In this document: positions 159 to 63,160 of the stretch, in pieces
Position numbering within the stretch: the stretch's first letter is position 1
Layout of the letters: the number at the start of each line of letters is the position of its first letter
DNA from: an uncultured delta proteobacterium
Lineage (GTDB): Bacteria > Myxococcota_A > Polyangia > Haliangiales > Haliangiaceae
DNA length: 64,000 nt
Assembly: GCA_963772655.1 (NCBI GenBank)
Contig: CAVYYE010000009.1
Location: 150,343 to 214,342 of the forward strand
Reading direction: 5' to 3'
Program-made: the position numbers and the translations under genes
Notes under the pieces: generated by a model
The model's database searches: none
What the model was told of the DNA's origin: nothing
Seen by the model: the letters and a program-made list of their open reading frames with translations, nothing else

Positions 159-3100
159 ATGAGGCTCGGTCGTGTCCTGCTGCTTGCCCTCGTCGCGACC
201 GCTGCCATCGCGCCGGTTGCGGCGATCGCCGATGACTGGGGGGTCCAGCGCGATCCGTTCGACAAGAAGGAGATCGCGACCTACAAGCGCTACCTCGCGC
301 GCAACCCCCACGACGCTGGCGCGCTCGCGCGTCTGCTCGACAAGTACCGCCGCTACCGCACGGTCGATCTGCTGAAGAGCGAATACCAGAAGCAGATCGA
401 CAAGAACCCGAAGGACTGGGCCGCGCTGGTCGTGCTCGGCCACCTGTATCGCAAGACCGGCGATGATCCGCGCGCGCTCGACAACTGGAACCGCGCCGTC
501 GCGCTCCGGGACTCCGATGCCACGACCTGGATCGCGATCGGCGCCGTCCACAAGGCGAGCGGCAAGAACAAGGATGCGCGCGTCGCCTACGACAAGGCGC
601 TCGTCCACTCGAAGACCAAGAACCAGAAGAAGAAGGCGCTGCGCGCCCTCGCCGACCTCGCGCTCGCGACCGGTGACAACGACGGCGCCGACGCCTACTT
701 CAAGCAGTTCCTCGCGCTCGAGCCGCGCAACGCGCAGCTGTGGATCGAACGTGGCGACGCGATGCTCGCGGCCGGCAAGCACGAGGTCGCGCTCGACAGT
801 TACGCGCACGCCGAGAAGCTCCTCGGTGGCGACCCGTCGCGCCGGATCGACGTGGTCGCGCGCCGCGGCCAGGCCTTCGAGGGCATGGGCAAGGACGAGA
901 AGGCCGTCGCGGAGTACCGGCGCGCGATCAAGCTCGCGCCCAAGGGCTACTACCTCGAGGTCGAGCTCACCAACCGGATCATCGACATCTACCGCAAGAA
1001 GCAGGGCCTGCCCGGTTTGCTCGCGCACTACGAAAAGGCGTGGCCCGAGCGCATGCGCGGTCACTTCGAGTGGTCGACGCTCGGCAAGCTCTACGAGGAG
1101 ACCGGCGCCCAGGACAAGGCGATCCACGCGCTCAAGAAGGCGGTGCAGCGCGCTCCGACCGAGCTCGATACGCAGCGCCGGTTGATCACGCTGCTCGAGA
1201 ACTCGGGTCGCGACGACGAGGCGCTCCGCCAGTACGAGGCCGTGGTGCGCGCCGCGCCCGGCGATGCCCGGTTCCAGCTCGAGCTCGCCGATCGCTACCA
1301 GCGTCGCGGTCGCGACAAGAAGGCGCTCGAGGCGCTTGCCCGGTTGATCGCGCGGTTCCCCAACGACCCCGGCGTGCTCGGCGCCGTCGCCGACCTCTAC
1401 CAGCGATGGGGCAAGGAAGACCTCGCGATCGCGCAGTACGAACGGCTCGCCAAGCTCGAGCCCGACGATCCTTCGCACCTGGTCGCGCTCGGCGAGCAGT
1501 ACTGGCAGAAGGGCAACCGCAAGCGCGCGACCGAGACCTGGAAGCGGCTGATCAACATCGGCAAGGCCGCCGGCTACGCCAAGCTCGGCGAGGTGTTCAA
1601 CGAGCACAACATGCAGGAGGAAGCGCTCGCCCAGTACGCCAAGGCGATCGCGATGGATCCCAAGAAGGCGGCGTTCTACAAGGGGCGCGCCCAGGTCTGG
1701 GAGGCCAAGCGGATCTGGGGGCGCGCGCTCGCCGACCTCGACAAGGTGCTCGAGCTCCTCGGTCACAAGGCAACCGACCGCATGGCGCGTCGCGAGATCC
1801 GCCGGCGCTACGTCACGATCGTGACCCGCTACGCGGCGCGCGAGCCGCAGTACAAGAAGAAGTGGATCGACGGCTTCGCCGACGGCAAGGGTACGAGCGC
1901 GCAGGCGATCGAGGATGGCTACTTCCTCGCCGAGTACTACTCGCGCACCGGCAAGCAGGTGCGTGGACAGCCCGAGCGCGTGCTCGCGGCGCTGCACAAG
2001 CGGGTCCCCGACGATCAGGAGCTGACGCTCGAGCTGGTCAAGCAGTACCGGCTGATCCGCAACTTCGAGCCCGCGATCGCCCTGCTCCTCGAGCTCGCCA
2101 AGCAGGTGCCGAGCCGCGAGGCCGAGGTCTACAACATGATCGCCGACATCAAGATCGAGCAGCGGAAGGACTCCGAGGTCGCGATCTGGCGCCAGAAAGC
2201 GATCGCCAAGAGCCCGAACAGCCCGCTCGGCTACGAGAAGCTCGCCGAGGGCTACGTCGCGATGCAGAAGTTCCCCGAGGCGATCGCGGCGTACCAGAAG
2301 GTGCTCGAGCGCGACCCGCGCAACACCAAGGCGCTGTTCGCGCTCGCGCAGCTCCACATCCAGGCCGGCACGCCGCTCAAGGCGGTCGACCTACTACGTG
2401 CGGTGCTCCGCAACTCGACGAGCGAGGAGGATGTCGCGCGCGCCGGCCGCGAAGCGATCGCGCTCGAGGAGATGACCGACACGCTCGGCGAGCTCGAGAA
2501 GGTCCTGTCTCCGCTGGCGTTCATGATGGCGCACAAGCCGGTGTACCGGCGCGTGCTCGTCGACCTCTACCTCCGCTACGTGCCCCGGCTCGTCGAGCGC
2601 GAGCGCCACGGCACCGACGACGTCAAGAAGGCTGCCCGCGCCGAGCTCGCGCGCATCGGCGGTCACGGCCTGCAGCCGCTGCTCGAGGCGTTGCGTGACG
2701 AGAAAGAGCCGTCGCACCGCGCGGCGGTCGAGGTGCTCGGTCACCTCGGGAACAAGGGGGCGGCCGCGCCGCTGGTCCACCTCGCGCGCCAGGAGCCACC
2801 GCACGACACCCGGTTCATCGGCACGCTCACCGAGGCGCTCGATCGCGAGGTCCGCGTCGAGGCACTGGTCGCGGCCGGCCGGCTCGGCGATCCGCGCGTG
2901 CTATCCGACGTGTTGCCGCTGATGGATCATCCCGAGCTCGCGATGCGCGAGGCGGCCACGTTCACGATCGGTCGCTCGGGCGATCGGCGTGCCGTACCGG
3001 CGCTGGTCAAGGCGCTCGGCGATCGCCGTCCGAGCGTGCAGACACTCGCGTGCCTCGGACTCGCGCAGATCGACGACAAGCGTGGCGTGGCGGCGGCGAT

Positions 3101-5342: not shown

Positions 5343-6668
5343 ATGACCGTCTGCAACAGATGCGGGAAAGAAAACCAGGACCACTACAAGTTCTGCCTGG
5401 GATGCGGAGCCGAGCTATCGGCCGCACCGAAGCCGCCAGCGGGCGACATGGGCATGATGAAGACCATGATGGCGGACAACTCCCAGGGCTTCGGTCCGGG
5501 TGGTCCGGGTGGTCCTCCGGGACCGGGACCGGGACCGGGTCCGGGTGGACCGGGTCCGGGTCCGGGTCCGGGTCCGGTTGGTCCGGGTCCGATGGGACCG
5601 CCCCCGGGAATGCCCGGGATGCCGCCACCAGGACAGCAGCAGCGGGGGCCGTCCAACGCGATGCCGCAGCAGGGACCGCGTTCGGGTCCGATGGGCATGC
5701 CGCCCTCGGGACCGATCGGTGCGCCTCCGATGACACCTCCCCCGATGGGCCCGCCTCCCGGCGTGCCGGGATTCAATCCGGGCTTCGGACCACCCCCCGG
5801 TGGACCGAGTCCGTCGACCGGTCCGCGTCGCTGTCCGTCGTGCGGTAGCGACGTCCCGCCGACGTTCCGGTTCTGCGGCACGTGCGGCTTCCGCATGGAC
5901 GAGGGCTCGGCCCCGATGCAGATGCCGCAAGGCCCCGGCGGCGGACCCCCGATGGGTGGCCCCGGCCCGCAGATGGGTGGTCCGCAGATGGGTGGTCCGC
6001 AGATGGGTGGTCCGCAGATGGGTGGCCCGCAGCCCGCCCCCGCGCGACTGTCGATGACGCTGATCCGCCCGGACGGCACCGAGGGTGGCACCCACGAGCT
6101 GCGGCCCGGCGAGAACAAGATCGGTCGTAGCTTCGGTCCGATCTTCGAGAACGACGGTTACCTGTCGCCGGTCCACGCGGTGCTGATGATCCACGGCCCC
6201 AGCCAGGGCATGGTGAAGGACCTCGACAGCCTCAACGGCGTGTTCGTGAAGATGACGCAGGAGGAGGAGCTGACCTCCGGCCAGATCATCCGCATCGGAC
6301 AGGAGCTGCTGCGGTTCGAGCTCATCGCGTCGCCGGAGGCCACCCCCGACGGCACCGAGCTCATGGGCAGCCCCAACCCCGGCTACTGGGGCAAGCTGAC
6401 CGTGATCATCGGCCGCGACATCACCGGTGCGGCGTTCCCGCTCCTCGGCGACAACGTCACGCTCGGTCGCGAGCGCGGGGAGATCAACTTCCCCGACGAC
6501 GGTTATGTCTCGGGACTCCACGCGCGCGTCACGCTGCGTGACGGCCGGGTCTACCTCTCCGACCTCGGCAGCTCGAACGGCACGTTCATCAAGGTCAACG
6601 GAGAGCGCGGCGTCGGTAACGAGTCGTTCGTCCTCCTCGGCCAGCAGCTGTTCCGGCTCAACATCTAG
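5343..6668 (+). CDS. Zinc-ribbon / P-G-rich low-complexity / double-FHA protein (paralog of the upstream gene)
   Basis: CNRCG...CLGCG and CPSCG...CGTCG zinc ribbons. Long Pro/Gly-rich linker with (GPQMG)n and GPGPG repeats. Two FHA modules (KIGRSFGPIFENDGYLSPVHAVL...; TLGRERGEINFPDDGYVSGLHARV...SSNGTFI). SD-like GAGGGA upstream of the ATG. Confidence 0.85.
   Translation: MTVCNRCGKENQDHYKFCLGCGAELSAAPKPPAGDMGMMKTMMADNSQGFGPGGPGGPPGPGPGPGPGGPGPGPGPGPVGPGPMGPPPGMPGMPPPGQQQRGPSNAMPQQGPRSGPMGMPPSGPIGAPPMTPPPMGPPPGVPGFNPGFGPPPGGPSPSTGPRRCPSCGSDVPPTFRFCGTCGFRMDEGSAPMQMPQGPGGGPPMGGPGPQMGGPQMGGPQMGGPQMGGPQPAPARLSMTLIRPDGTEGGTHELRPGENKIGRSFGPIFENDGYLSPVHAVLMIHGPSQGMVKDLDSLNGVFVKMTQEEELTSGQIIRIGQELLRFELIASPEATPDGTELMGSPNPGYWGKLTVIIGRDITGAAFPLLGDNVTLGRERGEINFPDDGYVSGLHARVTLRDGRVYLSDLGSSNGTFIKVNGERGVGNESFVLLGQQLFRLNI
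5968..6033 (+). repeat. In-frame 15-bp tandem repeat (CCGCAGATGGGTGGT x about 4.4) encoding (PQMGG)n; upstream GGTCCG-type hexamer repeats at about 5492-5595
   Basis: Direct reading of the sequence: near-perfect head-to-tail copies inside the coding region of the second FHA gene. Confidence 0.9.
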
Positions 6669-44876: not shown

Positions 44877-46417
44877 TCGGCGCCATAGAGCTCGAGGCCG
44901 AGCGTGATCGCGTACGCGGGGTCGCTTCCGCCGGCATCGATCACGCCGCCGCGCAGATACGGCCCGACGCCGGCGTGCGCGCGCGGCCAGTACGTGCGAT
45001 CGCCGGGCAGCCGCAGCGCGATACCCGCCTGCGCGAGATCGCTCGACAGCGCCGCCGCTCGCGCCGGATCGCCGGCGATCCGGTAGTCGAGCTGCGCGTC
45101 GATCGTCGCGTGGAATGGACCCAGCGGCAGCTCGAGCCACGCGCCGACGGGAACCGCCGCGTGCAGCCCGTCGGGAATCGTCGAGATCCCGCCGGCGACA
45201 CCGAGCATCGCGCCACCCAAGCGCACGCCGATGCCGATCGGCATCAACGCGCCGGCGAAGCCGTCGGACGTGATCGTCGCGCGCGCCGCGCCACCGAGCC
45301 CGATCGGAACGCGCTTGCCGAAGTGCACGCGTAGCTCGCCGAGCCCGGATTTCGACGTGGTGCCGCCGCTGGAGACCAGCCCGAGCCCACCACCGAGCTC
45401 GATGCCGAGCACGGTCCCGCTCGGATCGCCGCGCAGCGGACCCGTGAAGATCGGCGGCGGCTTCACCGCGGGTCCACCGGTGTGCGCCGCAAGCCACGCG
45501 AGGATGTCGTCCTCGACGCGCGTGCCGTCGGGCTCGTGCACGAGGTCGTGTTTGAAGCCCTCGTAGATCCGCAACGTCTTGTCGGTGGCCGGCGCGGCCT
45601 CGATCAACGCGCGGCTTCCCGACGGCGCGGTCAGCAGATCCTTGGTGCCGTGCAGCGCGAGCACCGGCATGGTCAGACGATCGATGTGGGCCCAGAACGA
45701 CGCCGCCCCGGCGGCGAGCCCGGCGGCGGTGCGCGCCGGGTTGGGGCCGAGCTCGACCAGCGGATCCTTCTTCATCGCCGCGACCACGGCGGGGTCGCTC
45801 GAGAAGTCCTCGGGCTTCAGGTCGAGGGCCCCGAGGTTCGGCGCGATGACGCCGAGCAGCCGCACGCCGGCGACGCCGATCGGCGGCACGCCGAGGTTCA
45901 GTGCCGCACCCGACAGGATCACGCCCGCGATCCCCGGTGGCTGTCGCTCGACCACGGTGGCCGCGACGATCGCGCCGCCCATCGAGTGACCCATGATGAA
46001 GATCGGTTGGCCCGGCTCGGCAAGGTGTACGAGGCCGATGAACCGATCGAGATCGTCGACGTAGTCCTGCCAATCCCTCGGTGCGACGCGCGGTCCCGCG
46101 GAGCGCGCGTGACCGCGGAGGTCGGCTGCGTAGACGGCGAACCCCGCCGCGGCGGCGCGACGCGCGAGGTGATCGTAGTTGTCGGAGTGATCGTTGAGAC
46201 CGTGCTGGATGATCAACACGCCCTTCTGCGGCGCGGAGGTCGCGGGCCACTTGCGGCGGAATAGCTGGGTGCCGTCGGCGGCCTGGAAGCTCCCGACCTC
46301 CTCGCCCGCCGGCGCCGGCGTCTCGGGTCGAAACGGTACGTTCGGTGCGTGCGCACACGCAAACAGCGCGAGCATCAGCACGAGCGAAACGGCGGCAACA
46401 CGCATGACGCGCAGCAT
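44873..46417 (-). CDS. Alpha/beta hydrolase (lysophospholipase / monoglyceride-lipase family) with an about 190-aa Gly-rich C-terminal extension
   Basis: ATG at 46417: MLRVMRVAAVSLVLMLALFACAHA signal. HGLNDHSDNY, nucleophile elbow GHSMGG, and His near the domain C-terminus (FKHDLVHEPD). C-terminal alternating Gly/hydrophobic pattern (LGIELGGGLGLVSSGG...ITLGLELYGAD). Confidence 0.8.
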   Translation of the reverse strand: MLRVMRVAAVSLVLMLALFACAHAPNVPFRPETPAPAGEEVGSFQAADGTQLFRRKWPATSAPQKGVLIIQHGLNDHSDNYDHLARRAAAAGFAVYAADLRGHARSAGPRVAPRDWQDYVDDLDRFIGLVHLAEPGQPIFIMGHSMGGAIVAATVVERQPPGIAGVILSGAALNLGVPPIGVAGVRLLGVIAPNLGALDLKPEDFSSDPAVVAAMKKDPLVELGPNPARTAAGLAAGAASFWAHIDRLTMPVLALHGTKDLLTAPSGSRALIEAAPATDKTLRIYEGFKHDLVHEPDGTRVEDDILAWLAAHTGGPAVKPPPIFTGPLRGDPSGTVLGIELGGGLGLVSSGGTTSKSGLGELRVHFGKRVPIGLGGAARATITSDGFAGALMPIGIGVRLGGAMLGVAGGISTIPDGLHAAVPVGAWLELPLGPFHATIDAQLDYRIAGDPARAAALSSDLAQAGIALRLPGDRTYWPRAHAGVGPYLRGGVIDAGGSDPAYAITLGLELYGAD

Positions 46418-50333: not shown

Positions 50334-50633
50334 TCACGGCGGTAGCGGCTCGCCGATGAAGCCGTCGATCACGTCGTACGCGGTATCCTTGAGGATCACC
50401 GAGCTTTCGAACTGCTCGCCGCCGTGCTCGTCGAGCCATTCCTTGGATTTCACCAGACCCACGAGGTCGTTGGGGTCGTGATCTTGGCCGGTGGCGCGGA
50501 TGAAGTGGACGCCGGGCTTCATCACGAATGCGCGTCCGAGCTCGGTGAGCGTCATCCGATCACCCTCGAGTGACGCACGCCCCTCTGCTGTCCACGCATC
50601 GAGGCGCTCCACCGAGATAAAGAGGCGCGACAT
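50334..50633 (-). CDS. Hypothetical 99-aa protein upstream of the ccsA-like / hemA genes
   Basis: Uninterrupted ORF with reasonable codon bias. MSRLFISVERLDAWTAEGRASLEGDRMTLTELGRAFVMKPGVHF... No known motif. Confidence 0.45.
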   Translation of the reverse strand: MSRLFISVERLDAWTAEGRASLEGDRMTLTELGRAFVMKPGVHFIRATGQDHDPNDLVGLVKSKEWLDEHGGEQFESSVILKDTAYDVIDGFIGEPLPP

Positions 50634-50737
50634 GCTTGGGAGAATTCTACCGCTCGGGGATGCAGCCGCCTAGGTGTCCAGGTTGCCAGCAGCACCCCAG
50701 GGGGTTACATAAGGGGACCTTCGGAGGTAAACGACCT

Positions 50738-51067
50738 ATGGCCAACGCGAACGTCAAGGAGCTCACCGATAGCAACTTCGAGTCGGAAGTCCTCAAATCC
50801 GAGATTCCGACGCTGGTGGACTTCTGGGCCGTATGGTGTGGCCCCTGCAAGCAGATCGCGCCCACCGTCGACGCGCTCGCCACCGAGTACCAGGGCCGGC
50901 TCAAGGTCGCCAAGATGGACGTCGACCATCACCAGGTGGTCCCGCAGCAGTACGGCATCCGCTCGATCCCCACGCTCTTGATCTTCAAGGGTGGCAAGGT
51001 CGTCGGCCAGCTGGTCGGCGCGGCCCCCCGCAGCAAGCTCGAAGCCGAGATCCAGAAGCACCTGTAG
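50738..51067 (+). CDS. trxA: Thioredoxin
   Basis: WCGPCK active site, MANANVKELTDSNFESEVLKSEIPTLVDFWAVWCGPCKQIAP. GGAGGT SD 9 nt upstream. Confidence 0.95.
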   Translation: MANANVKELTDSNFESEVLKSEIPTLVDFWAVWCGPCKQIAPTVDALATEYQGRLKVAKMDVDHHQVVPQQYGIRSIPTLLIFKGGKVVGQLVGAAPRSKLEAEIQKHL

Positions 51068-51098
51068 ATCCGGCCCCGCGGCCGCGTTCTCGTCCGAT

Positions 51099-52016
51099 TC
51101 ACCGGCGCAAGCTGGTGATGTACTCGTGCGCGCTCTCGCGGAGCACGTCGGCGAGGAGCTTGTACTCGCGCAACCGCGCCGAGCTGGTGCGCCACACCAG
51201 GCCGATCGTGCGACCCGGCGGATGCGTGATCGGCGCGGTCATCACCGGTCCGCGGCGGGTCACCAGGGCGCTGGCCGCCGCCTCCGGCAACAGCGTGATG
51301 CCGATCCCACCTGCCACCATCTGCACCAGCGTCGGCAGACTGGTCGCACGGACCTCGAGCGACTCGACGGCACCGGCTCGTTCGCACACGGCGAGCGCCT
51401 GATCGCGCAAGCAGTGACCGTCCTCGAGGAGAAGCACGGTCTCGTCGTCGAGATCCTTCTCGTGGATGCGACCGCGCTTCTTGATGATCGGTGCGTCGCG
51501 ATGGGCCGCGACCACAAAGCGCTCGTGAACGATCTCGGTCGCGGTGACATCCCCCGGTACCGGCAACGCGAGCAACGCGACGTCGAGGCGCCCGGCATCG
51601 AGCTGGGCGAGCAGTCGCGCGGTCTGGTCCTCGACGAGGATCAGCTCGAGCTCGGGATAGCACTCGCGAACCGCCGGCAAGAGCGCCGGCAACCAGTACG
51701 GCGCGATCGTCGGGATCACGCCGAACCGGAACGGTCCGACCAGCGGCTCTCCGCGTCGTCGAGCAGCCGACGCCACCTCGTCGACGGCAGTCAGCGCGAG
51801 GCGCGCGCGCCCGATCACCTCCTCGCCCGCCGGCGTGACCAACACGCTCCGGCGATCGCGTTCGAACAGCTGGACCCCGAGCGTGCGTTCGGCACTCTGG
51901 ATCTGCGCCGACAGCGCCGGTTGCGAGATCCCGAGCGCTCGGGCGGCGCGGTGGAAGTTGCCGTGGTCGGCCACGGCTACCGCGCACTCGAGCTGGCGGA
52001 TCGAGGGACGGTCCAT
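51099..52016 (-). CDS. LysR-family transcriptional regulator, divergent from the Tpt1-PARG gene
   Basis: N-terminal wHTH MDRPSIRQLECAVAVADHGNFHRAARALGISQPALSAQIQSAERTLGVQLFERDRR, plus a LysR substrate-binding domain. Confidence 0.9.
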   Translation of the reverse strand: MDRPSIRQLECAVAVADHGNFHRAARALGISQPALSAQIQSAERTLGVQLFERDRRSVLVTPAGEEVIGRARLALTAVDEVASAARRRGEPLVGPFRFGVIPTIAPYWLPALLPAVRECYPELELILVEDQTARLLAQLDAGRLDVALLALPVPGDVTATEIVHERFVVAAHRDAPIIKKRGRIHEKDLDDETVLLLEDGHCLRDQALAVCERAGAVESLEVRATSLPTLVQMVAGGIGITLLPEAAASALVTRRGPVMTAPITHPPGRTIGLVWRTSSARLREYKLLADVLRESAHEYITSLRR

Positions 52017-52105
52017 GATAGGAACACCTTGTCACATCTCGCGCAGTAATCGAGCGGGCGAGGCGTCGATGGCACAAAGTGGCGGCGTCGCCGATCGAAA
52101 CCATC

Positions 52106-52133
52106 TTGACGGCGTTTCTTGTTCGTGTATATT
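52106..52133 (+). promoter_or_regulatory. Sigma-70-type promoter TTGACG-N16-TATATT for the Tpt1-PARG gene
   Basis: TTGACG at 52106-52111, TATATT at 52128-52133. An AT-rich island in a 70% GC genome, about 25 nt upstream of the GTG start. Confidence 0.55.
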
Positions 52134-52154
52134 GAACACCATCTAATGGTGTTC
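52134..52154. promoter_or_regulatory. Perfect palindromic operator GAACACCAT-cta-ATGGTGTTC overlapping the TSS/RBS region; a third half-site (GGAACACC) at 52026-52033 lies next to the LysR start
   Basis: 9-3-9 perfect inverted repeat read directly. Matching octamer on the opposite strand 110 bp away near the divergent LysR gene. Confidence 0.6.
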
Positions 52155-52158
52155 CATC

Positions 52159-53556
52159 GTGTCGACTCGTCTATCCAAGTTCCTGTCCCTCGTCCTCCGC
52201 CACCAGCCCGACCTGATCGGCATCACGCTCGATGACGCCGGCTGGACCGGCGTCGAGGCGTTGCTCGCGGCGGCGGCGGCACACGGCACGCCGATCACGC
52301 GCGCCGAGCTCGACGATATCGTCCGCAGCTCCGACAAGCAGCGATTCGCGCTGTCGCCCGACGGCGCGAAGATCCGCGCGAACCAGGGCCATTCGGTCGG
52401 GGTCGATCTGGCCCTCGCCCCGGCGCCGCCACCGGCCGTGCTCTACCACGGCACCGTCGACAAGGTTCTCGCGAGCATCCGCACGGGCGGCCTGATCAAG
52501 GGCGCACGTCACCACGTCCACCTGTCGGCCGATCGCGACACGGCGACCAAGGTCGGAGGCCGTCGCGGCAAGCCGGTGATCCTGACCGTGCGTGCCGATG
52601 CGATGGCGGATGCCGGACACGTGTTCTATCGGTCGGCGAACGGCGTGTGGCTGGTCGAGGCGGTGCCACCGGCGTTCCTGGTGTTCCCGAACGTCGGCGA
52701 CGCCGTCGACCCGTACGATCGGGTGAACCACGTCTCGCGCGGAGCCAAGGCACAGATCGCGAAGACCACGCTGACGGCGTGCGAGCTCGGCGAGTACACC
52801 AACGCGCGCGGACAGCGCGTCGCGATCGGCGAGGCGCTCGCGGCCGCGCACGACGGCACGCGCCTCTACGAGCTCGGCGATGGATCGCTGCGACCCACCG
52901 GCGGCGCGCGGACACCGAGCCGCACCACGATCGAAGTGACGCACGAGACCACGATCGAGGCGATCGTGCGCCTCGCGTCGCGGTCGGGAGGTCACCTCGC
53001 GTGCCTGAACTTCGCCTCGGCGAAGAACCCGGGTGGCGGGTTCCTCGGTGGTGCGCAGGCGCAGGAAGAGTCGCTCGCGCGATCGAGCGCGCTGTATCCG
53101 TGCCTGCTCGCGCAACGCGACCACTACGATCGCAACCGCGCACACCGTTCGGTGGTGTACCTCGACCTCGCGATCTGGTCGCCGCACGTGCCGTTCTTCC
53201 GCGACGACCGTGGCGACTGGCTCGACGCACCGGTGCTGGCATCGGTGATCACGTGCGCCGCGCCGAACGCCGGTGCACTCCGCCAGCAGGAGCGCTTCGA
53301 CGCCGAGGTGGTCGAGGCGGCGTTGCGCCGGCGTGCGGGGCTCGTGCTCGCGGTGGCGGTGCACCACCGCGTCGCGCGCCTGGTGCTCGGCGCGTGGGGC
53401 GCGGGCGTGTTCGGCAACGATCCGGTGATGGTCGCCGACGCGTTCGGAGCGTTGCTCGAAACAGACTACGCGGGTGCGTTCGACGAGGTCTGCTTCGCGG
53501 TGATCGGCGGGGAAGGCTCGCCGAACCACGCCGCGTTCGCTCGGCGTTTCCGGTAG
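52159..53556 (+). CDS. kptA: Fusion protein: RNA 2'-phosphotransferase Tpt1/KptA (aa 1-185) plus bacterial-type PARG / DUF2263 macrodomain (aa about 200-465)
   Basis: The N-terminus aligns end-to-end with KptA: SKFLSLVLRHQPDLIGITLDDAGW...SSDKQRFALSPDGAKIRANQGHSVGVDL...LYHGT...HVHLSADRDTATKVGGRRGKPVILTV...ANGVWL (R-H-R-R catalytic residues present). The C-terminus carries the LACLNFASAKNPGGGFLGGAQAQEESLARSSALYPCL signature (PGGG-X7-QEE) of the microbial PARG / TIGR02452 macrodomain family. Single uninterrupted ORF, GTG start. Confidence 0.85.
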   Translation: MSTRLSKFLSLVLRHQPDLIGITLDDAGWTGVEALLAAAAAHGTPITRAELDDIVRSSDKQRFALSPDGAKIRANQGHSVGVDLALAPAPPPAVLYHGTVDKVLASIRTGGLIKGARHHVHLSADRDTATKVGGRRGKPVILTVRADAMADAGHVFYRSANGVWLVEAVPPAFLVFPNVGDAVDPYDRVNHVSRGAKAQIAKTTLTACELGEYTNARGQRVAIGEALAAAHDGTRLYELGDGSLRPTGGARTPSRTTIEVTHETTIEAIVRLASRSGGHLACLNFASAKNPGGGFLGGAQAQEESLARSSALYPCLLAQRDHYDRNRAHRSVVYLDLAIWSPHVPFFRDDRGDWLDAPVLASVITCAAPNAGALRQQERFDAEVVEAALRRRAGLVLAVAVHHRVARLVLGAWGAGVFGNDPVMVADAFGALLETDYAGAFDEVCFAVIGGEGSPNHAAFARRFR

Positions 53557-53743
53557 GGAACCTCCCGAACACGACGATCGAACCGGACGATCGAGCGCGA
53601 CGGGCTTGCGCTCGATCGTCCGGACCATCGCCAGACGTGCGCGCGGATCGCCGTAACCGTGCGGACCACCCGGTGGCGCGAGGCCTGCAGGTGCTCCGCG
53701 CACCTCGTTGCCGTAGCCCCTCCCCTCACCCTGGAGCCGCCCC

Positions 53744-54220
53744 ATGGTGTTCGCCGAAGGATCGACCGAATTCGCGCTCGAAGATCTCCCCCGCGACCGC
53801 ATCCTGGTCGCGCACGCCGGAACGGACGCGCAGACCGCCGCGATCGTGCGGGCCCTCGTGCTCGAGCTCGAACACCGCGCCGGAACCTCCGAGGTCCCCG
53901 CGTTCGAGGCCGGCTCGGCGCCACCTCCTCACGACTTCCGTGCGGTCGCCATCGTCTCGCCGGTGCGGTTCGGTCGGTTCGCGCGCTCGGCGATCGAGTA
54001 CGTCGTCGAACACGCCGCCGCGCTCGCCCGGATCCCCGGCTTCGTGATCGGGTTTTCCCGCGAACGGCGAGGCGTGCGCCGCGCGTTCGAGCACCTGATG
54101 CGGTCGTCGCGATGGCAGCCCACGCTCAGCGTGTCCCTCGAACGCGCCGGGTGGTTCGGCGATCCCCGGTCGGTACCGGCGCTGCAGATCCACGAGCTCG
54201 CGCGCTCGATCGCGTCGTGA
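53744..54220 (+). CDS. Flavodoxin-like protein resembling HemG (menaquinone-dependent protoporphyrinogen IX dehydrogenase)
   Basis: ILVAHAGTDAQTAAIVRALVLELE...FRAVAIVSPVRFGRFARSAIEYVVEHAAALARIPGFVIGFS parallels the HemG flavodoxin-fold pattern. 158 aa. Confidence 0.45.
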   Translation: MVFAEGSTEFALEDLPRDRILVAHAGTDAQTAAIVRALVLELEHRAGTSEVPAFEAGSAPPPHDFRAVAIVSPVRFGRFARSAIEYVVEHAAALARIPGFVIGFSRERRGVRRAFEHLMRSSRWQPTLSVSLERAGWFGDPRSVPALQIHELARSIAS

Positions 54221-54495
54221 CCCGAAACGGACGACGGCCCGGGCGAGCGACTCGGACGTGGTGGGTGTCTCGCCGGAGTCGATCGCCATCGGCGTCGTTC
54301 TCGTCGAGGGACCTCGTGGGAGGTCTCGTCCGAGCGGCTCGTCGAGCCGCCGATGACTCCGAGAAGAGCAAGCCACGTGCCGCGAGAACACGTGGGTTTT
54401 GGCGTTCGTTCACGCGGCCGGTGCACGTCACGTGTTCGCCGCGTGCACCGGATTCGCGAAGTCGCGATCTCCCGATCGACGGAGGCGCGAGCGCG

Positions 54496-55092
54496 TCAGA
54501 GACTGGAGACGTAGCTACGGATCAACCCGACCTCGGCGTCGGTGATCTCCGTGGCGGTCCACGACGGCATGTAGCTCGTGCGCGAGCCGTAGCTGGTGCC
54601 ACCGTGCCCGAACCGGATCAGCAAGCTGACGTTGTTGGCCTCGCGCGCGATGTTCTTACCGACCCGACCACTGCGACCGTCGGCGCCGTGGCAGTTGGTA
54701 CAGAACCGACCGTACAACTCCGCGCCCGTGGCCGGCTTCTCGGCCTCGCCGAGGTAACCGAGGATCGACGTCAGCTCGGCGTCGGTCACCGCGTTGGCGT
54801 CGAGGGCGGCCATGCCCCCACCCGGAAAGCCCATCTCGTTGCGGCCGTGGCGCACGACGTACGTCGCGTAACCGGTGACCGGGTTCAGGATCGTCGGGCC
54901 GAGGTTGCCCCCGCTGCCATCGCCGTGACAGCTCGCGCAGTTCTTGACGAACAGCGTCTTGCCGTCGCTCTGGGTCGCGCCGTCTGGGGTCGTGCCATCG
55001 TCTCCGCCACCGGTGGAGTCGGTGCCGCAAGCAACGAGTGCGGCGGTGACCGCGATCGAGAACAGGGACGAACGTACAGACGTGTGGATCAC
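54496..55092 (-). CDS. Dihaem c-type cytochrome (c4-like) lipoprotein
   Basis: GTG start gives MIHTSVRSSLFSIAVTAALVACG (lipobox). Two CxxCH motifs (CASCHGDG, CTNCHGADG), each with a downstream Met ligand. Confidence 0.75.
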   Translation of the reverse strand: MIHTSVRSSLFSIAVTAALVACGTDSTGGGDDGTTPDGATQSDGKTLFVKNCASCHGDGSGGNLGPTILNPVTGYATYVVRHGRNEMGFPGGGMAALDANAVTDAELTSILGYLGEAEKPATGAELYGRFCTNCHGADGRSGRVGKNIAREANNVSLLIRFGHGGTSYGSRTSYMPSWTATEITDAEVGLIRSYVSSL

Positions 55093-55225
55093 GGCACACG
55101 GATATCGCGGCCGGGAATCGACGACAACCGACAACGCCGGTCGGGTCACCGGCAGCGCTTATCCGATCGATGCGTGCGATACGCGCGTGGTGTTCAGCGA
55201 TCGCGCAGCGATCGTACAGCGACGA

Positions 55226-56358
55226 TCAATACCCGTGCTTGCGCAGGGATACGTTGGCGACCAACCCCATCGCGCACAGGAACACGACCAGCGAGCTGCC
55301 CCCGTAGGAGATGAACGGCAACGTGACGCCGACCACGGGCGCGAGCCCGAGCACCATCGCGATGTTGACGACGACGTGCCAGAACGTCATCGCCCCGACG
55401 CCGACGCAGATCGCCGCGCCCATCCGATCGCGCGCGGACAGCGCGGCGTTCAAGATCCACACGAGCAAGAACCCGAAGATCACGACCAGCACGACCGACC
55501 CGACAAAGCCCCACTCCTCGGCCCACACCGAGTACGGGAAGTCGGTCCAGTGCTCGGGCAAGAAGTCGAACTGGTTCTGCGTGCCCTCGCCGAACCCCTT
55601 GCCCCAGATCTTCCCGGAGCCGACCGCGAAGATCGACTGCCGGGTGTGCCAGCCGTTACCGGTCGGATCGGAGCCCGGATCCAGGAATGCCAGGATCCGG
55701 TTCTTCTGGTAGTCGTGCATCGTCTCCCAGAGGATCGGGATCGACAGCAGACCGGCGAGCGTGACGTGAACCATCGGCCACACCGACGGCATCACCAAGA
55801 AGCCGACGGTGAGCACGATCAGCGCGAGCAGCACCGCGCTTCCGAGGTCGGGCTGGATCGCGATCAGCCCGATCGGGATCGCGAGACCGAGCGCCTTGGC
55901 GGCGAGCACGATCGGTGGGGTGTGCGTGAGATCGTCGGAGAACAGCTGGGCGAGCGCGAGGATCACCATCAGCTTGGCCAGCTCCGACGGCTGGATTCCC
56001 ATCCCGAAGATGTTGAGCCAGCGGTAACTGCCCTTGCCGTGGGCGTCGTCGCCGATCAGTCGTACGACGACGAGCAGGAGGATCGCGACACCGAGCCCGA
56101 TCCAGGCGAGTCGCACGAGCGCCCGGTAGTCGATCGCGGTGGCGACCACGAACCCGATCGCCCCGACCACCATCCACTTCACCTGGGTGTCGAACTTGGT
56201 GTGGTGACGGGTGCCGTGCGTCGCCGAGTACAGGTTGAGCAGGCCGATCGTGCACAGCGCGATCACGGCCAAGATCAACGGCCAGTCGACCGCGGCCCGG
56301 AACCGGCGCCAGCGGCTGACACCGATCGTCGCACGCGGCAGCTGGAGGCCGGTGCCCC

Positions 56359-56362
<4 letters not shown>
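55226..56362 (-). CDS. rodA: Rod shape-determining SEDS protein RodA
   Basis: GTG start overlapping the mrdA stop (GTGA). DWPLILAVIALCTIGLLNLYSATHG..., GSYRWLNIFGMGIQPSELAKLMVILALA, PDLGSA. Confidence 0.9.
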
Positions 56363-58295
<1,933 letters not shown>

Positions 58296-61087: not shown

Positions 61088-63160
61088 ATGCTCGACTCCA
61101 TGCGCCGTCAAGGCGCGTCCATCTTTCTGTATCTCGTGTTCGGTCTGCTGATCGCGATCTTCGTGATCAACATCAACCCCGGTTCGTCCGGGGAAGGTGG
61201 GTGCGGTACCGGCGGCGGCGCATTGGTCACGGTCGGCAACACCAAGGTCGGCAAGAACGCCTATCTGGTCGCGTACTCGAACCGCTTCATCTCCGAGTTC
61301 ATGCGGATGTGGGGCTTCAAGACGTCGCTCGAGCGCGAGTTCGCCGCCGTCGAGATCCTGATCCGTCGAGAGATCCTCGCCGACGCCGCGACCAGCCGCG
61401 GCCTCCGCGTCGACGACGAGATGGTGTTGGAGGAGATCAAGAAGGGGAACTTCTTCATCGGCGGTCAACGGATCCCACTCGGCGAGTGGATCTTCGACAA
61501 GCACGACGACGGCAGCAAGACCTGGAACATCGACAAGTTCACCAACTGGTACCGCAGCATGAACGTGTCGCGGACGAGCTACGTCGACGAACAGACCCGC
61601 GGGATGGAAGCGGCGATGATGGAGGAGCTGCTGATCAACTCCGTGCGGGTGTCGCTCGACGAGGTCCGCGACGCGTACATCCAGGACAAGACCACGGTGT
61701 CGTACGACGTCGTCCCGTTCCAACCGTCGGTGTACCGCGGCGCGATGCGGCTGACCGACGCCGACGCCCAGCGCTACCTGGCCGCCCACGAGGACGAGGT
61801 CAAGGCGCGGTTCAAGGCCGACGAGCGGACGTACAAGAACGTCAAGCCGCAGCTGAAGCTCCGCGAGATCTTCATCGCGAAGCCGGAGGAGCCGAAGCCG
61901 GAGCCCGCGGGTGCGGGAAGCGGCAGCGGTAGCGCGGCGGGGAGTGCCGCCGGCAGTGGTGCCGGGAGCGCGGCCAAGCCCGCCACGCCCGAGAAGCCGA
62001 AGAAGAAGACAGGCATGCCGGTCGCCGAGGCCAAGGCCAAGCTCGAGGCCGTGCGGCGTGCGGTGGTCGCCAACAAGAAGAAGTTCGCCGACGCCGCCAA
62101 GATGCTCACCACCGACGAGGCGATGAAGGCCAACGGCGGTGACCTCGGCTGGCGCACGGCCGAGAGCCCGGGGCTGCCCGACAAGGCGCTCAACGACCAG
62201 GTCAAGGCACTCAAGGCCGGCGAGATGACGCCGGTGATCGAGACCGACAAGGGCGTGTACCTGATCCGCGTCGAGGACACGCGGCCGGTCGGCGACGCGA
62301 AGGACCTGACCTACGATCAGGTCAAGCTCGAGATCGCGGCCGACCTCGCGCGCGACGCGTGGAGCAAGGAAGCCGCCAAGCGGGCCGCGCTCGAGGCGCT
62401 CGCCACGGTGCGCGGTGCCCACAAGAACCTGTCCGATCTGTTCCAGGAGTCGATCGAGGATCAGATCCGCCGCCAGTTCTCCAAGGGTGGCGCCGGCGGT
62501 CTCAACATCCAGCACGACGAGCAGATGGCGTGGAAGCCGAGCGACGACGATGCGAGTGGCTCGACGGGCGGCAGTGGCAGCGGTGGCAGTGACAGTGACA
62601 GTGACAGTGGCAGTGGCAGCGGCAGCGGCGGTGACAGCGGCAGCGGCAGCGGCAGCGGCAGCGGCAGCGGCAGCGGCAGCGCCGGCACGGGTGCGCCCAA
62701 GCCGGCGACCCCCGCGATCCCACCGGTCGTCGCCACCACGGACGTGCTCCCCACGTTCGGCGATGTCCCCGCGCCCAACCTGAAGAAGTACGAAGCGACG
62801 CCGCGGCTCCCGATGATGCCGGGGATCAGCAAGGAGCTGATCCCCGTGCTGTTCGACCAGCTCGCCGCGGGCATGCTGGCGGACCGGGTCTACGAGTCCA
62901 ACGGCGCCTACATCCTGGTCCAGGTCACCGCGAAGGGTGAGGCCAGCATGAAGGAGTTCGACAAGGAGGCGCCCAAGTTGATGGCGCAGATGCGCCTGAT
63001 GCGCGCTGCCGAGCTGATCGAGGACTACCTGAAGAACCGCTGTCTGGCGCTCGCCAAGGACGACAAGATCCAGGCGTCGCGGGCGCTGTTCCAGAACGGG
63101 AAGCCCGACGAGAAGGGCACGCCGCCGCCGACCTACCACCCCTGCATGACGTTCCGGTAG
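61088..63160 (+). CDS. Membrane-anchored parvulin-type peptidyl-prolyl isomerase (PpiD/SurA-like) with Gly/Ser-rich low-complexity inserts
   Basis: N-terminal TM (IFLYLVFGLLIAIFVI), SurA_N-like region. Parvulin domain (DEAMKANGGDLGWRTAESPGLPDKALNDQVKALKAGEMTPVIETDKGVYLIRVED). (GS)n inserts. Confidence 0.8.
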   Translation: MLDSMRRQGASIFLYLVFGLLIAIFVININPGSSGEGGCGTGGGALVTVGNTKVGKNAYLVAYSNRFISEFMRMWGFKTSLEREFAAVEILIRREILADAATSRGLRVDDEMVLEEIKKGNFFIGGQRIPLGEWIFDKHDDGSKTWNIDKFTNWYRSMNVSRTSYVDEQTRGMEAAMMEELLINSVRVSLDEVRDAYIQDKTTVSYDVVPFQPSVYRGAMRLTDADAQRYLAAHEDEVKARFKADERTYKNVKPQLKLREIFIAKPEEPKPEPAGAGSGSGSAAGSAAGSGAGSAAKPATPEKPKKKTGMPVAEAKAKLEAVRRAVVANKKKFADAAKMLTTDEAMKANGGDLGWRTAESPGLPDKALNDQVKALKAGEMTPVIETDKGVYLIRVEDTRPVGDAKDLTYDQVKLEIAADLARDAWSKEAAKRAALEALATVRGAHKNLSDLFQESIEDQIRRQFSKGGAGGLNIQHDEQMAWKPSDDDASGSTGGSGSGGSDSDSDSGSGSGSGGDSGSGSGSGSGSGSGSAGTGAPKPATPAIPPVVATTDVLPTFGDVPAPNLKKYEATPRLPMMPGISKELIPVLFDQLAAGMLADRVYESNGAYILVQVTAKGEASMKEFDKEAPKLMAQMRLMRAAELIEDYLKNRCLALAKDDKIQASRALFQNGKPDEKGTPPPTYHPCMTFR
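62567..62684 (+). repeat. Hexanucleotide microsatellite (GGCAGC / GACAGT)n, about 19 units, in frame (GS/DS repeats) inside the PPIase gene
   Basis: Direct reading: ggcagtggcagcggtggcagtgacagtgacagtgacagtggcagtggcagcggcagcggcggtgacagc(ggcagc)8. The antisense ORFs (VAVAVTVTV, CRCRCRC) are artefacts of this repeat. Confidence 0.9.

Follow-up and report, generated by a model that had tools for sequence, protein, structure and literature searches.

A gene encoding a fusion of the RNA 2'-phosphotransferase Tpt1/KptA with a microbial-type PARG lies in a 64,000-nucleotide stretch from an uncultured delta proteobacterium of the GTDB family Haliangiaceae (assembly GCA_963772655.1, contig CAVYYE010000009.1, positions 150,343 to 214,342; the whole stretch is referred to as the window). 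This gene is very probably controlled by a predicted 21-bp operator of the NrtR type that surrounds the -10 element of its promoter, with NrtR acting as a repressor and ADP-ribose relieving the repression. Most likely, Tpt1-PARG is therefore induced by ADP-ribose and is not under the control of the LysR-type regulator encoded next to it. The initial annotation of this region had described a sigma-70 promoter followed by a perfect 9-3-9 palindrome, which it took for the operator, directly ahead of the Tpt1-PARG start and divergent from the LysR gene. Promoter, palindrome and GTG start are all real, and the interpretation placed on them is only partly supported: the conserved element is located instead at 52122-52142, where it overlaps the -10 hexamer. 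The elements of the region are the following (positions are those of the window):

52106 to 52111, plus strand: -35 hexamer TTGACG, from the promoter scan; the position of its TTG is constant among 11 Tpt1-PARG promoters.
52122 to 52142: predicted NrtR-type 21-bp operator (the box) TTCGTGT-atattga-ACACCAT, with half-sites at 52122-52128 and 52136-52142.
52128 to 52133, plus strand: -10 hexamer TATATT, from the promoter scan, at the junction of the left half-site and the spacer of the box.
52134 to 52154: 9-3-9 palindrome GAACACCAT-cta-ATGGTGTTC, which overlaps the right half of the NrtR box by its left arm.
52139 to 52142, plus strand: predicted transcription start region, placed 6-9 nt past the -10 hexamer.
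52146 to 52152, plus strand: extra half-site ATGGTGT, NrtR-like and lineage-specific, within the palindrome's right arm and with no partner half-site downstream.
52159 to 53556, plus strand: Tpt1/KptA (RNA 2'-phosphotransferase) and microbial-type PARG fusion gene (PF01885, PF10021; NF002014, TIGR02452).

The promoter region reads ...CTTGACGgcgtttcttgttcgtgTATATTGAACACCATctaATGGTGTTCcatcGTG. Its hexamers TTGACG and TATATT, separated by a 16-nt spacer, constitute the sole match found by a scan for sigma-70-type sites in the range 50500-54000, agreeing with the consensus at 10 of 12 positions, where shuffled sequences yield 0.2 sites. Their spacing falls within the 16-18 bp of sigma-70-type promoters and their position is kept among orthologues, so that the promoter named in the initial annotation is borne out. 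The same holds for the perfect palindrome 4 nt ahead of the start codon: it is followed by CATC and then by the GTG at 52159, which opens a 465-amino-acid open reading frame. This start is backed by the orthologue of locus L081, which has ATG at the same codon and the sequence MSTR(L/I)SK. The intergenic region had also been described as roughly 70% guanine plus cytosine, a value that applies to the flanks, whereas the intergenic region itself is at ~49-62%. The predicted leader of ~17-20 nt (about 18 nt) lacks a strong Shine-Dalgarno sequence, and in two orthologues (L207, 3980-4003; L004, 2980-3003) the Tpt1-PARG start codon lies 0-3 nt past the box, so that their transcripts should be leaderless; both observations agree with the short-leader or leaderless mRNA proposed earlier. 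No terminator-like site was found at the locus in the scan of 50500-54000. The box of the window, TTCGTGTatattgaACACCAT, encloses the -10 hexamer and ends 16 nt ahead of the GTG, which is the geometry of a repressor site. A separate repressor occluding the transcription start had been offered in the initial annotation as an alternative to LysR, and this appears to be essentially right, with a repressor-type operator sitting on the promoter.

The conservation of the box was assessed on 12 Tpt1-PARG promoters, namely those of the window, of the orthologue loci L081-L084 and L206-L209, which were fetched through exact protein look-up, and of L001, L002 and L004. Loci L001-L004 were obtained by a metagenome scan for relatives of the fusion, a scan that was saturated by stand-alone Tpt1 genes. 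Exactly one box above 12 bits is present in 11 of the 12 promoters (the window, L081-L084, L206-L209, L002 and L004), scoring 22.9-33.2 bits and lying 21-49 nt before the start codon, and in each orthologous locus (2-9 kb) this promoter box is the sole match above 12 bits. The element conserved across these 11 promoters of Kofleriaceae-like Myxococcota is the palindrome TTnGTGT-N7-ACACnAA, which takes the form of a perfect 7-7-7 palindrome, TTAGTGTattaacgACACTAA, in L081. The promoters share the layout TTG(nnn)-N11-[TT(A/C)GTGT-N7-ACAC(C/T)AA], with the -10 (TAnnnn) inside the bracketed element, where relatives and window agree in the box positions that it occupies; the TTG is found 17 bp upstream of the box start, or 16 bp in the window (n = 11). 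Of the 9-3-9 palindrome, no more than the left arm falls within the box, and since the conserved element spans 52122-52142, this arm is to be read as the right half of the box. When the 11 Tpt1-PARG promoters are aligned with 8 pncB promoters (n = 19), GTGT and the A-C-C of ACAC are the sole invariant columns, the remaining A of ACAC being nearly invariant.

Specificity of the match was examined with a symmetric matrix trained on 17 sites, taken exclusively from non-Kofleriaceae loci that nearly all encode nrtR. On both strands of the 64-kb window, the site at 52122-52142 scores 26.3 bits, compared to 7.7 bits for the runner-up and 18.7 bits for the best of 200 shuffles. Among 80 metagenome loci (314 kb), matches above 18 bits occur in nrtR-encoding loci and in the Tpt1-PARG promoters of L002 and L004; a single further one lies in L013, a locus in which nrtR was not detected.

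The regulator was assigned through the loci in which the same motif recurs. A regular-expression search for GTGT-N7-ACAC in all fetched loci matched many distant stand-alone Tpt1 loci, typically as tandem pairs just past a TTGAC and ahead of a gene whose product begins with M.YTYEYPR.ALT. This product carries NUDIX and NrtR_WHD domains and is therefore identified as NrtR. Exposed by the stand-alone Tpt1 loci of the metagenome scan, nrtR heads nrtR-pncA-tpt1 operons in L012 (1613-4326) and L080 (1527-3519), with an ADP-ribosylglycohydrolase gene following in L012; the proteins closest to these NrtRs bear names of Planctomycetota and Verrucomicrobiota. Most of the 120 nrtR loci listed (Myxococcota, Planctomycetota, Verrucomicrobiota and others) bear this motif as well, and the tandem boxes elsewhere are 22-23 bp apart and directly upstream of nrtR genes. 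Furthermore, Tpt1 or PARG genes adjoin nrtR in L107, L120, L125, L142, L146, L155, L180, L188 and L194, which belong to other phyla, PARG being immediately 3' of nrtR in L120 (5215-6722) and L146 (3378-4495).

Several known operator types had served as leads, namely LexA/SOS boxes (CTGT-N8-ACAG, GAAC-N4-GTTC and the Xanthomonas TTAG...CTAA type) and the sites of CRP (TGTGA-N6-TCACA), PadR (ATGT-N8-ACAT), GntR and NrdR; all of them were dropped once the motif was found ahead of NUDIX and NrtR_WHD genes. Rodionov et al. (2008, NAR 36:2047, PMC2330246) describe NrtR sites as palindromes of 21 bp around a GT-N7-AC core, a form that is also that of 52122-52142. Such sites overlap promoters, implying repression, and function in tandem as well, while ADP-ribose and phospho-ADP-ribose suppress DNA binding by NrtR (PMC2330246). 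Binding and its release by ADP-ribose have been demonstrated for the NrtR proteins of Shewanella and Synechocystis (PMC2330246) and of Mycobacterium smegmatis (PMC6800001).

Two further observations concern nrtR loci of other lineages. In loci of the Planctomycetota/Verrucomicrobiota type (L012, L080, L120, L146 and L155), genes for tpt1, microbial PARG and ADP-ribosylglycohydrolase are found in or beside nrtR-pncA operons, with tandem boxes ahead. The high-GC locus L067 (1403-1553) has a divergent nrtR and tpt1 pair with a distant NrtR (44% identity; VDKSGFRTR instead of LDKRNFRKK) and a different dyad, TAGTTGttcaatgCAACCAA, of the form GTTG-N7-CAAC. Regulator and motif look as though they co-vary there, and the locus was left out of the box analysis.

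A matching NrtR subfamily is encoded in the clade of the window. The best 120 results of an NrtR profile search carry only names of the Planctomycetota/Verrucomicrobiota type, hence Kofleriaceae were covered by a codon-biased DNA pattern, TTCGAGCTSCTSCCS-N57-63-GACAAGCGSAACTTCCGS, derived from two invariant NrtR peptides (FELLP..DKRNFR) by back-translation with G or C in third positions, with which GTDB genomes were scanned. At least 120 loci match this pattern, and the 120 listed all encode a full-length NrtR, which shares ~43-78% of its residues with the L012 protein and in most cases more than 60%. The subfamily is present in at least 17 metagenome-assembled genomes of Kofleriaceae/Haliangiales and also in Sorangium, Archangium, Myxococcus and Corallococcus. 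The Kofleriaceae locus L115 (758-5938) has a pncB-prs-nadE-nrtR operon that closes with nrtR; in the remaining Kofleriaceae loci that were inspected, a nadE-like 3' end directly precedes nrtR, with pncA after nrtR in some. A box of 22-34 bits is located ~4.5 kb upstream of nrtR in L096, L115, L117, L122, L134, L138, L152, L156 and L174, nine Kofleriaceae-type myxobacterial loci among which are all named Kofleriaceae/Haliangiales loci whose upstream sequence is long enough. For L115, the site was confirmed to be the promoter of pncB, where a single box surrounds the -10 with TTGACA ahead, a layout shared with the window. The start codon of the pncB operon lies 2-6 nt past the box in Kofleriaceae-type genomes, which suggests that the pncB-prs-nadE-nrtR mRNA is leaderless. 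The nrtR operons of the lineage thus carry the same motif as the Tpt1-PARG promoters, in agreement with autoregulation. In addition, one assembly, GCA_035715365.1, holds both a boxed Tpt1-PARG (L209, 28.9 bits, contig DASTLB010000048.1) and nrtR (L154, contig DASTLB010000050.1). Two 239-amino-acid open reading frames, one beside Tpt1-PARG in L081 and one in the pncB operon of L115, turned out to be unrelated, the latter being a wrong-frame artefact over prs.

Several points weigh against NrtR control of the window's promoter. No nrtR gene lies within the 64-kb window, the cognate regulator being shown for related genomes only. The upstream region of the fusion gene in L001 (66% identity; 2800-3001) is without a box, so that box control is not universal among Tpt1-PARG fusions. 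The box of the window is itself among the weaker ones, its half-sites TTCGTGT and ACACCAT matching as a palindrome at 5 of 7 positions, and its -35 spacing of 16 bp departs from the 17 bp of its relatives. Finally, NrtR control leaves the perfect 9-bp copy in the right arm of the palindrome unaccounted for.

The regulated gene itself fits an NrtR regulon, as its product combines an NAD-dependent Tpt1 domain with an ADP-ribose-releasing PARG domain and is thereby tied to NAD and ADP-ribose metabolism. At least 120 close homologues of the fusion exist (63-77% identity), many of which are named as Kofleriaceae (Myxococcota). To our knowledge, bacteria do not make the 2'-phosphate splice junctions that yeast Tpt1 repairs. 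Tpt1 is able to cap 5'-phosphates with ADP-ribose, and bacterial PARGs remove such caps (NAR 2025, PMC11833690).

Based on the analogy with known NrtR systems, the following mechanism is proposed. Tpt1-PARG would be read from the sigma-70-type promoter with its -35 at 52106-52111 and its -10 at 52128-52133. A dimer of NrtR, the Nudix-related repressor, presumably encoded elsewhere in the genome, would bind 52122-52142 and occlude both the -10 hexamer and the transcription start, thereby blocking RNA polymerase. A rise in ADP-ribose, a product of NAD-consuming reactions and of ADP-ribose-removing enzymes including PARG itself, would cause NrtR to leave the DNA and Tpt1-PARG to be expressed. The fusion would then share a regulon with the myxobacterial pncB-prs-nadE-nrtR operon: with Tpt1 consuming NAD and PARG releasing ADP-ribose, it would be induced together with NAD salvage whenever ADP-ribose signals NAD turnover.

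This leaves the 9-3-9 palindrome that had drawn attention to the region. Perfect inverted repeats of this class (9 bp or more per arm and a loop no longer than 10 nt) number 14 in the window versus 15 +/- 5 in dinucleotide shuffles, so the palindrome is notable by its position and not by its existence, and the case as a whole rests on position and conservation. Other perfect palindromes of the window are CCGGATCGCCGGCGATCCGG at 45064-45083 (10-bp arms, no loop) and CGGGGATCAGCaaggaGCTGATCCCCG at 62820-62846 (11-bp arms, 5-nt loop). The initial annotation had proposed to define a regulon by recurrence of the motif and had named its absence from orthologous loci as a test. The palindrome occurs in a single copy in the window even at 3 mismatches, and its right arm, ATGGTGTTC at 52146-52154, has no counterpart in any relative, being absent from all ten of the box-carrying ones.

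These same observations bear on the idea that the palindrome is a separate operator for a lineage-specific dimeric regulator, which would act atop NrtR at the transcription start. The perfect 9-bp arms are centred on the predicted start, and with the left arm given, chance would place such an inverted copy of it within 10 nt in only about one of 10,000 cases (an estimate from 4^-9 x 11 positions). Yet uniqueness within 64 kb means that there is no regulon signal, the palindrome is missing from all relatives, such repeats as a class are no commoner than in shuffles, and the right arm resembles an NrtR half-site (ATGGTGT); a separate operator is accordingly considered unlikely. A second tandem NrtR box starting at 52146 was rejected as well: its score is -3.8 bits, a right half is missing, and the GTGT of the right arm lies 24 bp past that of the first box, a register that departs from the usual 22-23 bp. 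The register, the negative score of a full second box and the lack of conservation are all compatible with the right arm being a functionless by-product, for example of templated repair that copied the adjacent half-site. This explanation is tentatively entertained, although a perfect 9/9 match at a regulatory hot spot speaks against it. Taken together, the right arm appears to be lineage-specific and is most likely accessory or neutral; as an extra half-site, it may strengthen or extend the occupancy of NrtR over the transcription start.

Another option is a function at the RNA level, with the palindrome forming a hairpin close to the mRNA 5' end that stabilises the transcript or masks the start region. 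RNA spanning 52134-52175 folds into a 9-bp hairpin of -11.2 kcal/mol (z = -2.6), and relatives have small palindromes past the box (TGCCAGCCGGCA, TGACCGaacCGGTCA, TGACCcactcGGTCA) whose arms differ while staying complementary. The left arm begins only 1 nt past the -10 hexamer, however, so a transcript starting at about 52140 should lack it, and RNA from 52140 onwards has no significant fold (-3.1 kcal/mol, z = +0.7). In addition, the relatives form only weak hairpins, whose z-scores are not significant, and no Rfam match was obtained at E<=1, so that no structured RNA is recognized here. A function as an RNA hairpin is thus quite unlikely. As an observation in its own right, short GC-rich palindromes are found 2-9 nt past the box in orthologue leaders (TGCCAGCCGGCA, TGCCGGCCGGCA, TGACCGaacCGGTCA and TGACCcactcGGTCA), at approximate positions 2980-2991 in L082 and L084, 183-194 in L206, 1174-1185 in L083 and 3980-3994 in L209 and L208. 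As RNA these amount to -5 to -7 kcal/mol, which is not significant, and a short dyad after the box may be a recurrent feature.

The LysR neighbour, which the initial annotation had put forward as one possible regulator binding recognition and activation sites at this promoter, adds two features upstream:

51099 to 52016, minus strand: OxyR-family LysR regulator, assigned by NCBIfam and PDB matches; probably not the regulator of the box.
52017 to 52033: degenerate OxyR-type element GATAG-gaacacc-TTGTC, which abuts the LysR start and contains the GGAACACC octamer (52021-52028).

The best NCBIfam match of this protein is OxyR, at 249 bits and under the equivalog cut-off of 329, and its best PDB matches are OxyR as well (E=7.5e-57), with the redox cysteine pair GHCLRDQ...C aligned; by sequence, it is an OxyR homologue. 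OxyR recognizes the motif ATAG-N7-CTAT. At the LysR start the window has GATAGGAACACCTTGTC, with the degenerate dyad GATAGgaacaccTTGTC, which we take to be of the OxyR type on the strength of that motif. The LysR orthologue in L081 has a perfect GATAGG-ctgca-CCTATC abutting its ATG (GATAGGctgcaCCTATC, ~6085-6105, minus strand) and is without the octamer. A dyad of the ATAG-N7-CTAT type is probably the autoregulatory site of LysR itself. The octamer had been reported next to the LysR start at 52026-52033; it is indeed present, at 52021-52028, and because it lies inside the degenerate OxyR-type element, it is explained as the spacer of that element.

For the divergent OxyR-like LysR to control Tpt1-PARG under oxidative stress by binding the 9-3-9 palindrome and the GGAACACC octamer, a few features would be suitable. 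The two genes are divergent and 142 bp apart, the core TGT-N7-ACA of the box formally fits the generic LysR pattern T-N11-A, and the octamer occurs 5 times in the window versus 1.3 expected, with two copies in this intergenic region. The divergence reported for the window is nevertheless limited to it and to its identical copy L205 and is not kept in relatives: in L081, LysR is convergent with Tpt1-PARG and the box is kept, and no LysR gene was called in the DNA fetched around Tpt1-PARG of L082-L084 and L206-L209, all of which keep the box. The two genes are therefore no conserved divergent regulator-target pair. Moreover, the element at the start of the OxyR-like gene is of the ATAG-N7-CTAT kind and not GTGT-N7-ACAC, no ATAG-N7-CTAT element is present at 52100-52158 (the single degenerate one being that at 52017-52033), so that the Tpt1-PARG promoter does not have the make-up of an OxyR promoter, the octamer is not kept in L081, and the same box precedes pncB and nrtR operons with no LysR nearby. 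A LysR/OxyR operator is rejected on grounds of synteny and motif type, and control of Tpt1-PARG by LysR is regarded as very improbable.

The wider neighbourhood (window 50334-56722), comprising hemA, ccsA, trx, LysR, tpt1-parg, cytochrome c, rodA and pbp2, is syntenic across Kofleriaceae in comparison with L081-L084 and L206-L209. The order of genes around the fusion is shuffled among orthologous loci, and from one genome to the next tpt1-parg and LysR switch their orientation and place, a sign of local rearrangements.

NrtR control of Tpt1-PARG has close parallels among described systems. Like the NrtR operators of Shewanella prs-nadV, Synechocystis nadA/nadE/nadM-nadV, Blastopirellula pncB-nrtR-pncA and Streptomyces nrtR-draG, the latter two being among the listed regulon members, the box of the window is a 21-bp GT-N7-AC palindrome over a promoter (PMC2330246), and its motif is identical to that before nrtR-containing operons of the same clade and of Planctomycetota-like loci. 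Streptomyces nrtR-draG forms a precedent for the control of an ADP-ribose hydrolase (PMC2330246), the window target likewise being an NAD-consuming and ADP-ribose-releasing enzyme. In contrast to these systems, the target is a Tpt1-PARG fusion, kptA or the phosphotransferase not being named in the main text of PMC2330246. The window also has a single box instead of the common tandem pair, a regulator unlinked to its target and, unlike known NrtR sites, an extra inverted half-site that gives rise to the perfect 9-3-9 palindrome. In M. smegmatis, NrtR is a dimeric Nudix repressor with a winged helix-turn-helix that is freed from DNA by ADP-ribose, and its auto-repressor site GTTTTCGA-N7-TCGAAAAC (eLife 2019, PMC6800001) is an N7-spaced palindrome as in the window, whereas the half-site sequence and the regulon (nadABC there) differ and the NrtR subfamily is distant.

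OxyR/LysR-type divergent promoters resemble the window in having LysR divergent to the target and an N7-spaced dyad that fits T-N11-A. They differ from it in that the window half-sites are GTGT/ACAC and not ATAG/CTAT, that one dyad lies over the -10 with no recognition and activation sites upstream of the -35, and that the divergent arrangement is not kept in relatives. In Deinococcus radiodurans, PARG (DRB0099) is encoded in the damage-induced operon DRB0100-PARG-DRB0098 (PMC11833690). Here, too, a microbial-type PARG is under inducible control of the stress type, and Tpt1/KptA as the writer is paired biochemically with PARG as the eraser; unlike in the window, control is exerted by the DNA-damage response without NrtR and the proteins are separate, not fused.

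NrtR and its motif class are thus already known, and Tpt1-PARG is a new predicted member of a known regulon type. A literature search, which covered Rodionov et al. 2008 by its main text, returned no paper linking NrtR to Tpt1/KptA, PARG or Myxococcota. The eye-catching perfect palindrome offers a partial view of a known type of operator, and the LysR neighbour is a red herring. With the findings, NrtR regulons come to include those of Myxococcota, in which the pncB-prs-nadE-nrtR operon closes with nrtR, and a defined 21-bp site becomes available together with candidate regulator sequences. For what bacterial Tpt1 and PARG do in the cell, the wider implication is modest. The conserved NrtR box and the occurrence of tpt1 and parg inside nrtR operons lead to the testable hypothesis that Tpt1-PARG is induced by ADP-ribose and co-regulated with NAD salvage. 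It is conceivable, though somewhat doubtful, that an ADP-ribose-responsive NrtR regulon regularly includes, alongside pncA, pncB, prs and nadE, both Tpt1 and microbial PARG, which form a fusion in Kofleriaceae but are separate proteins in Planctomycetota and Verrucomicrobiota. If this were true, the extra inverted half-site might add a second layer of control in this lineage, such as an extended occupancy by NrtR or a cruciform over the transcription start. On the same reading of the regulon, bacterial Tpt1 and PARG would be the writer and the eraser of one NAD/ADP-ribose cycle, with Tpt1 acting for example on the 5'-phosphate ends of nucleic acids and being induced as free ADP-ribose rises.

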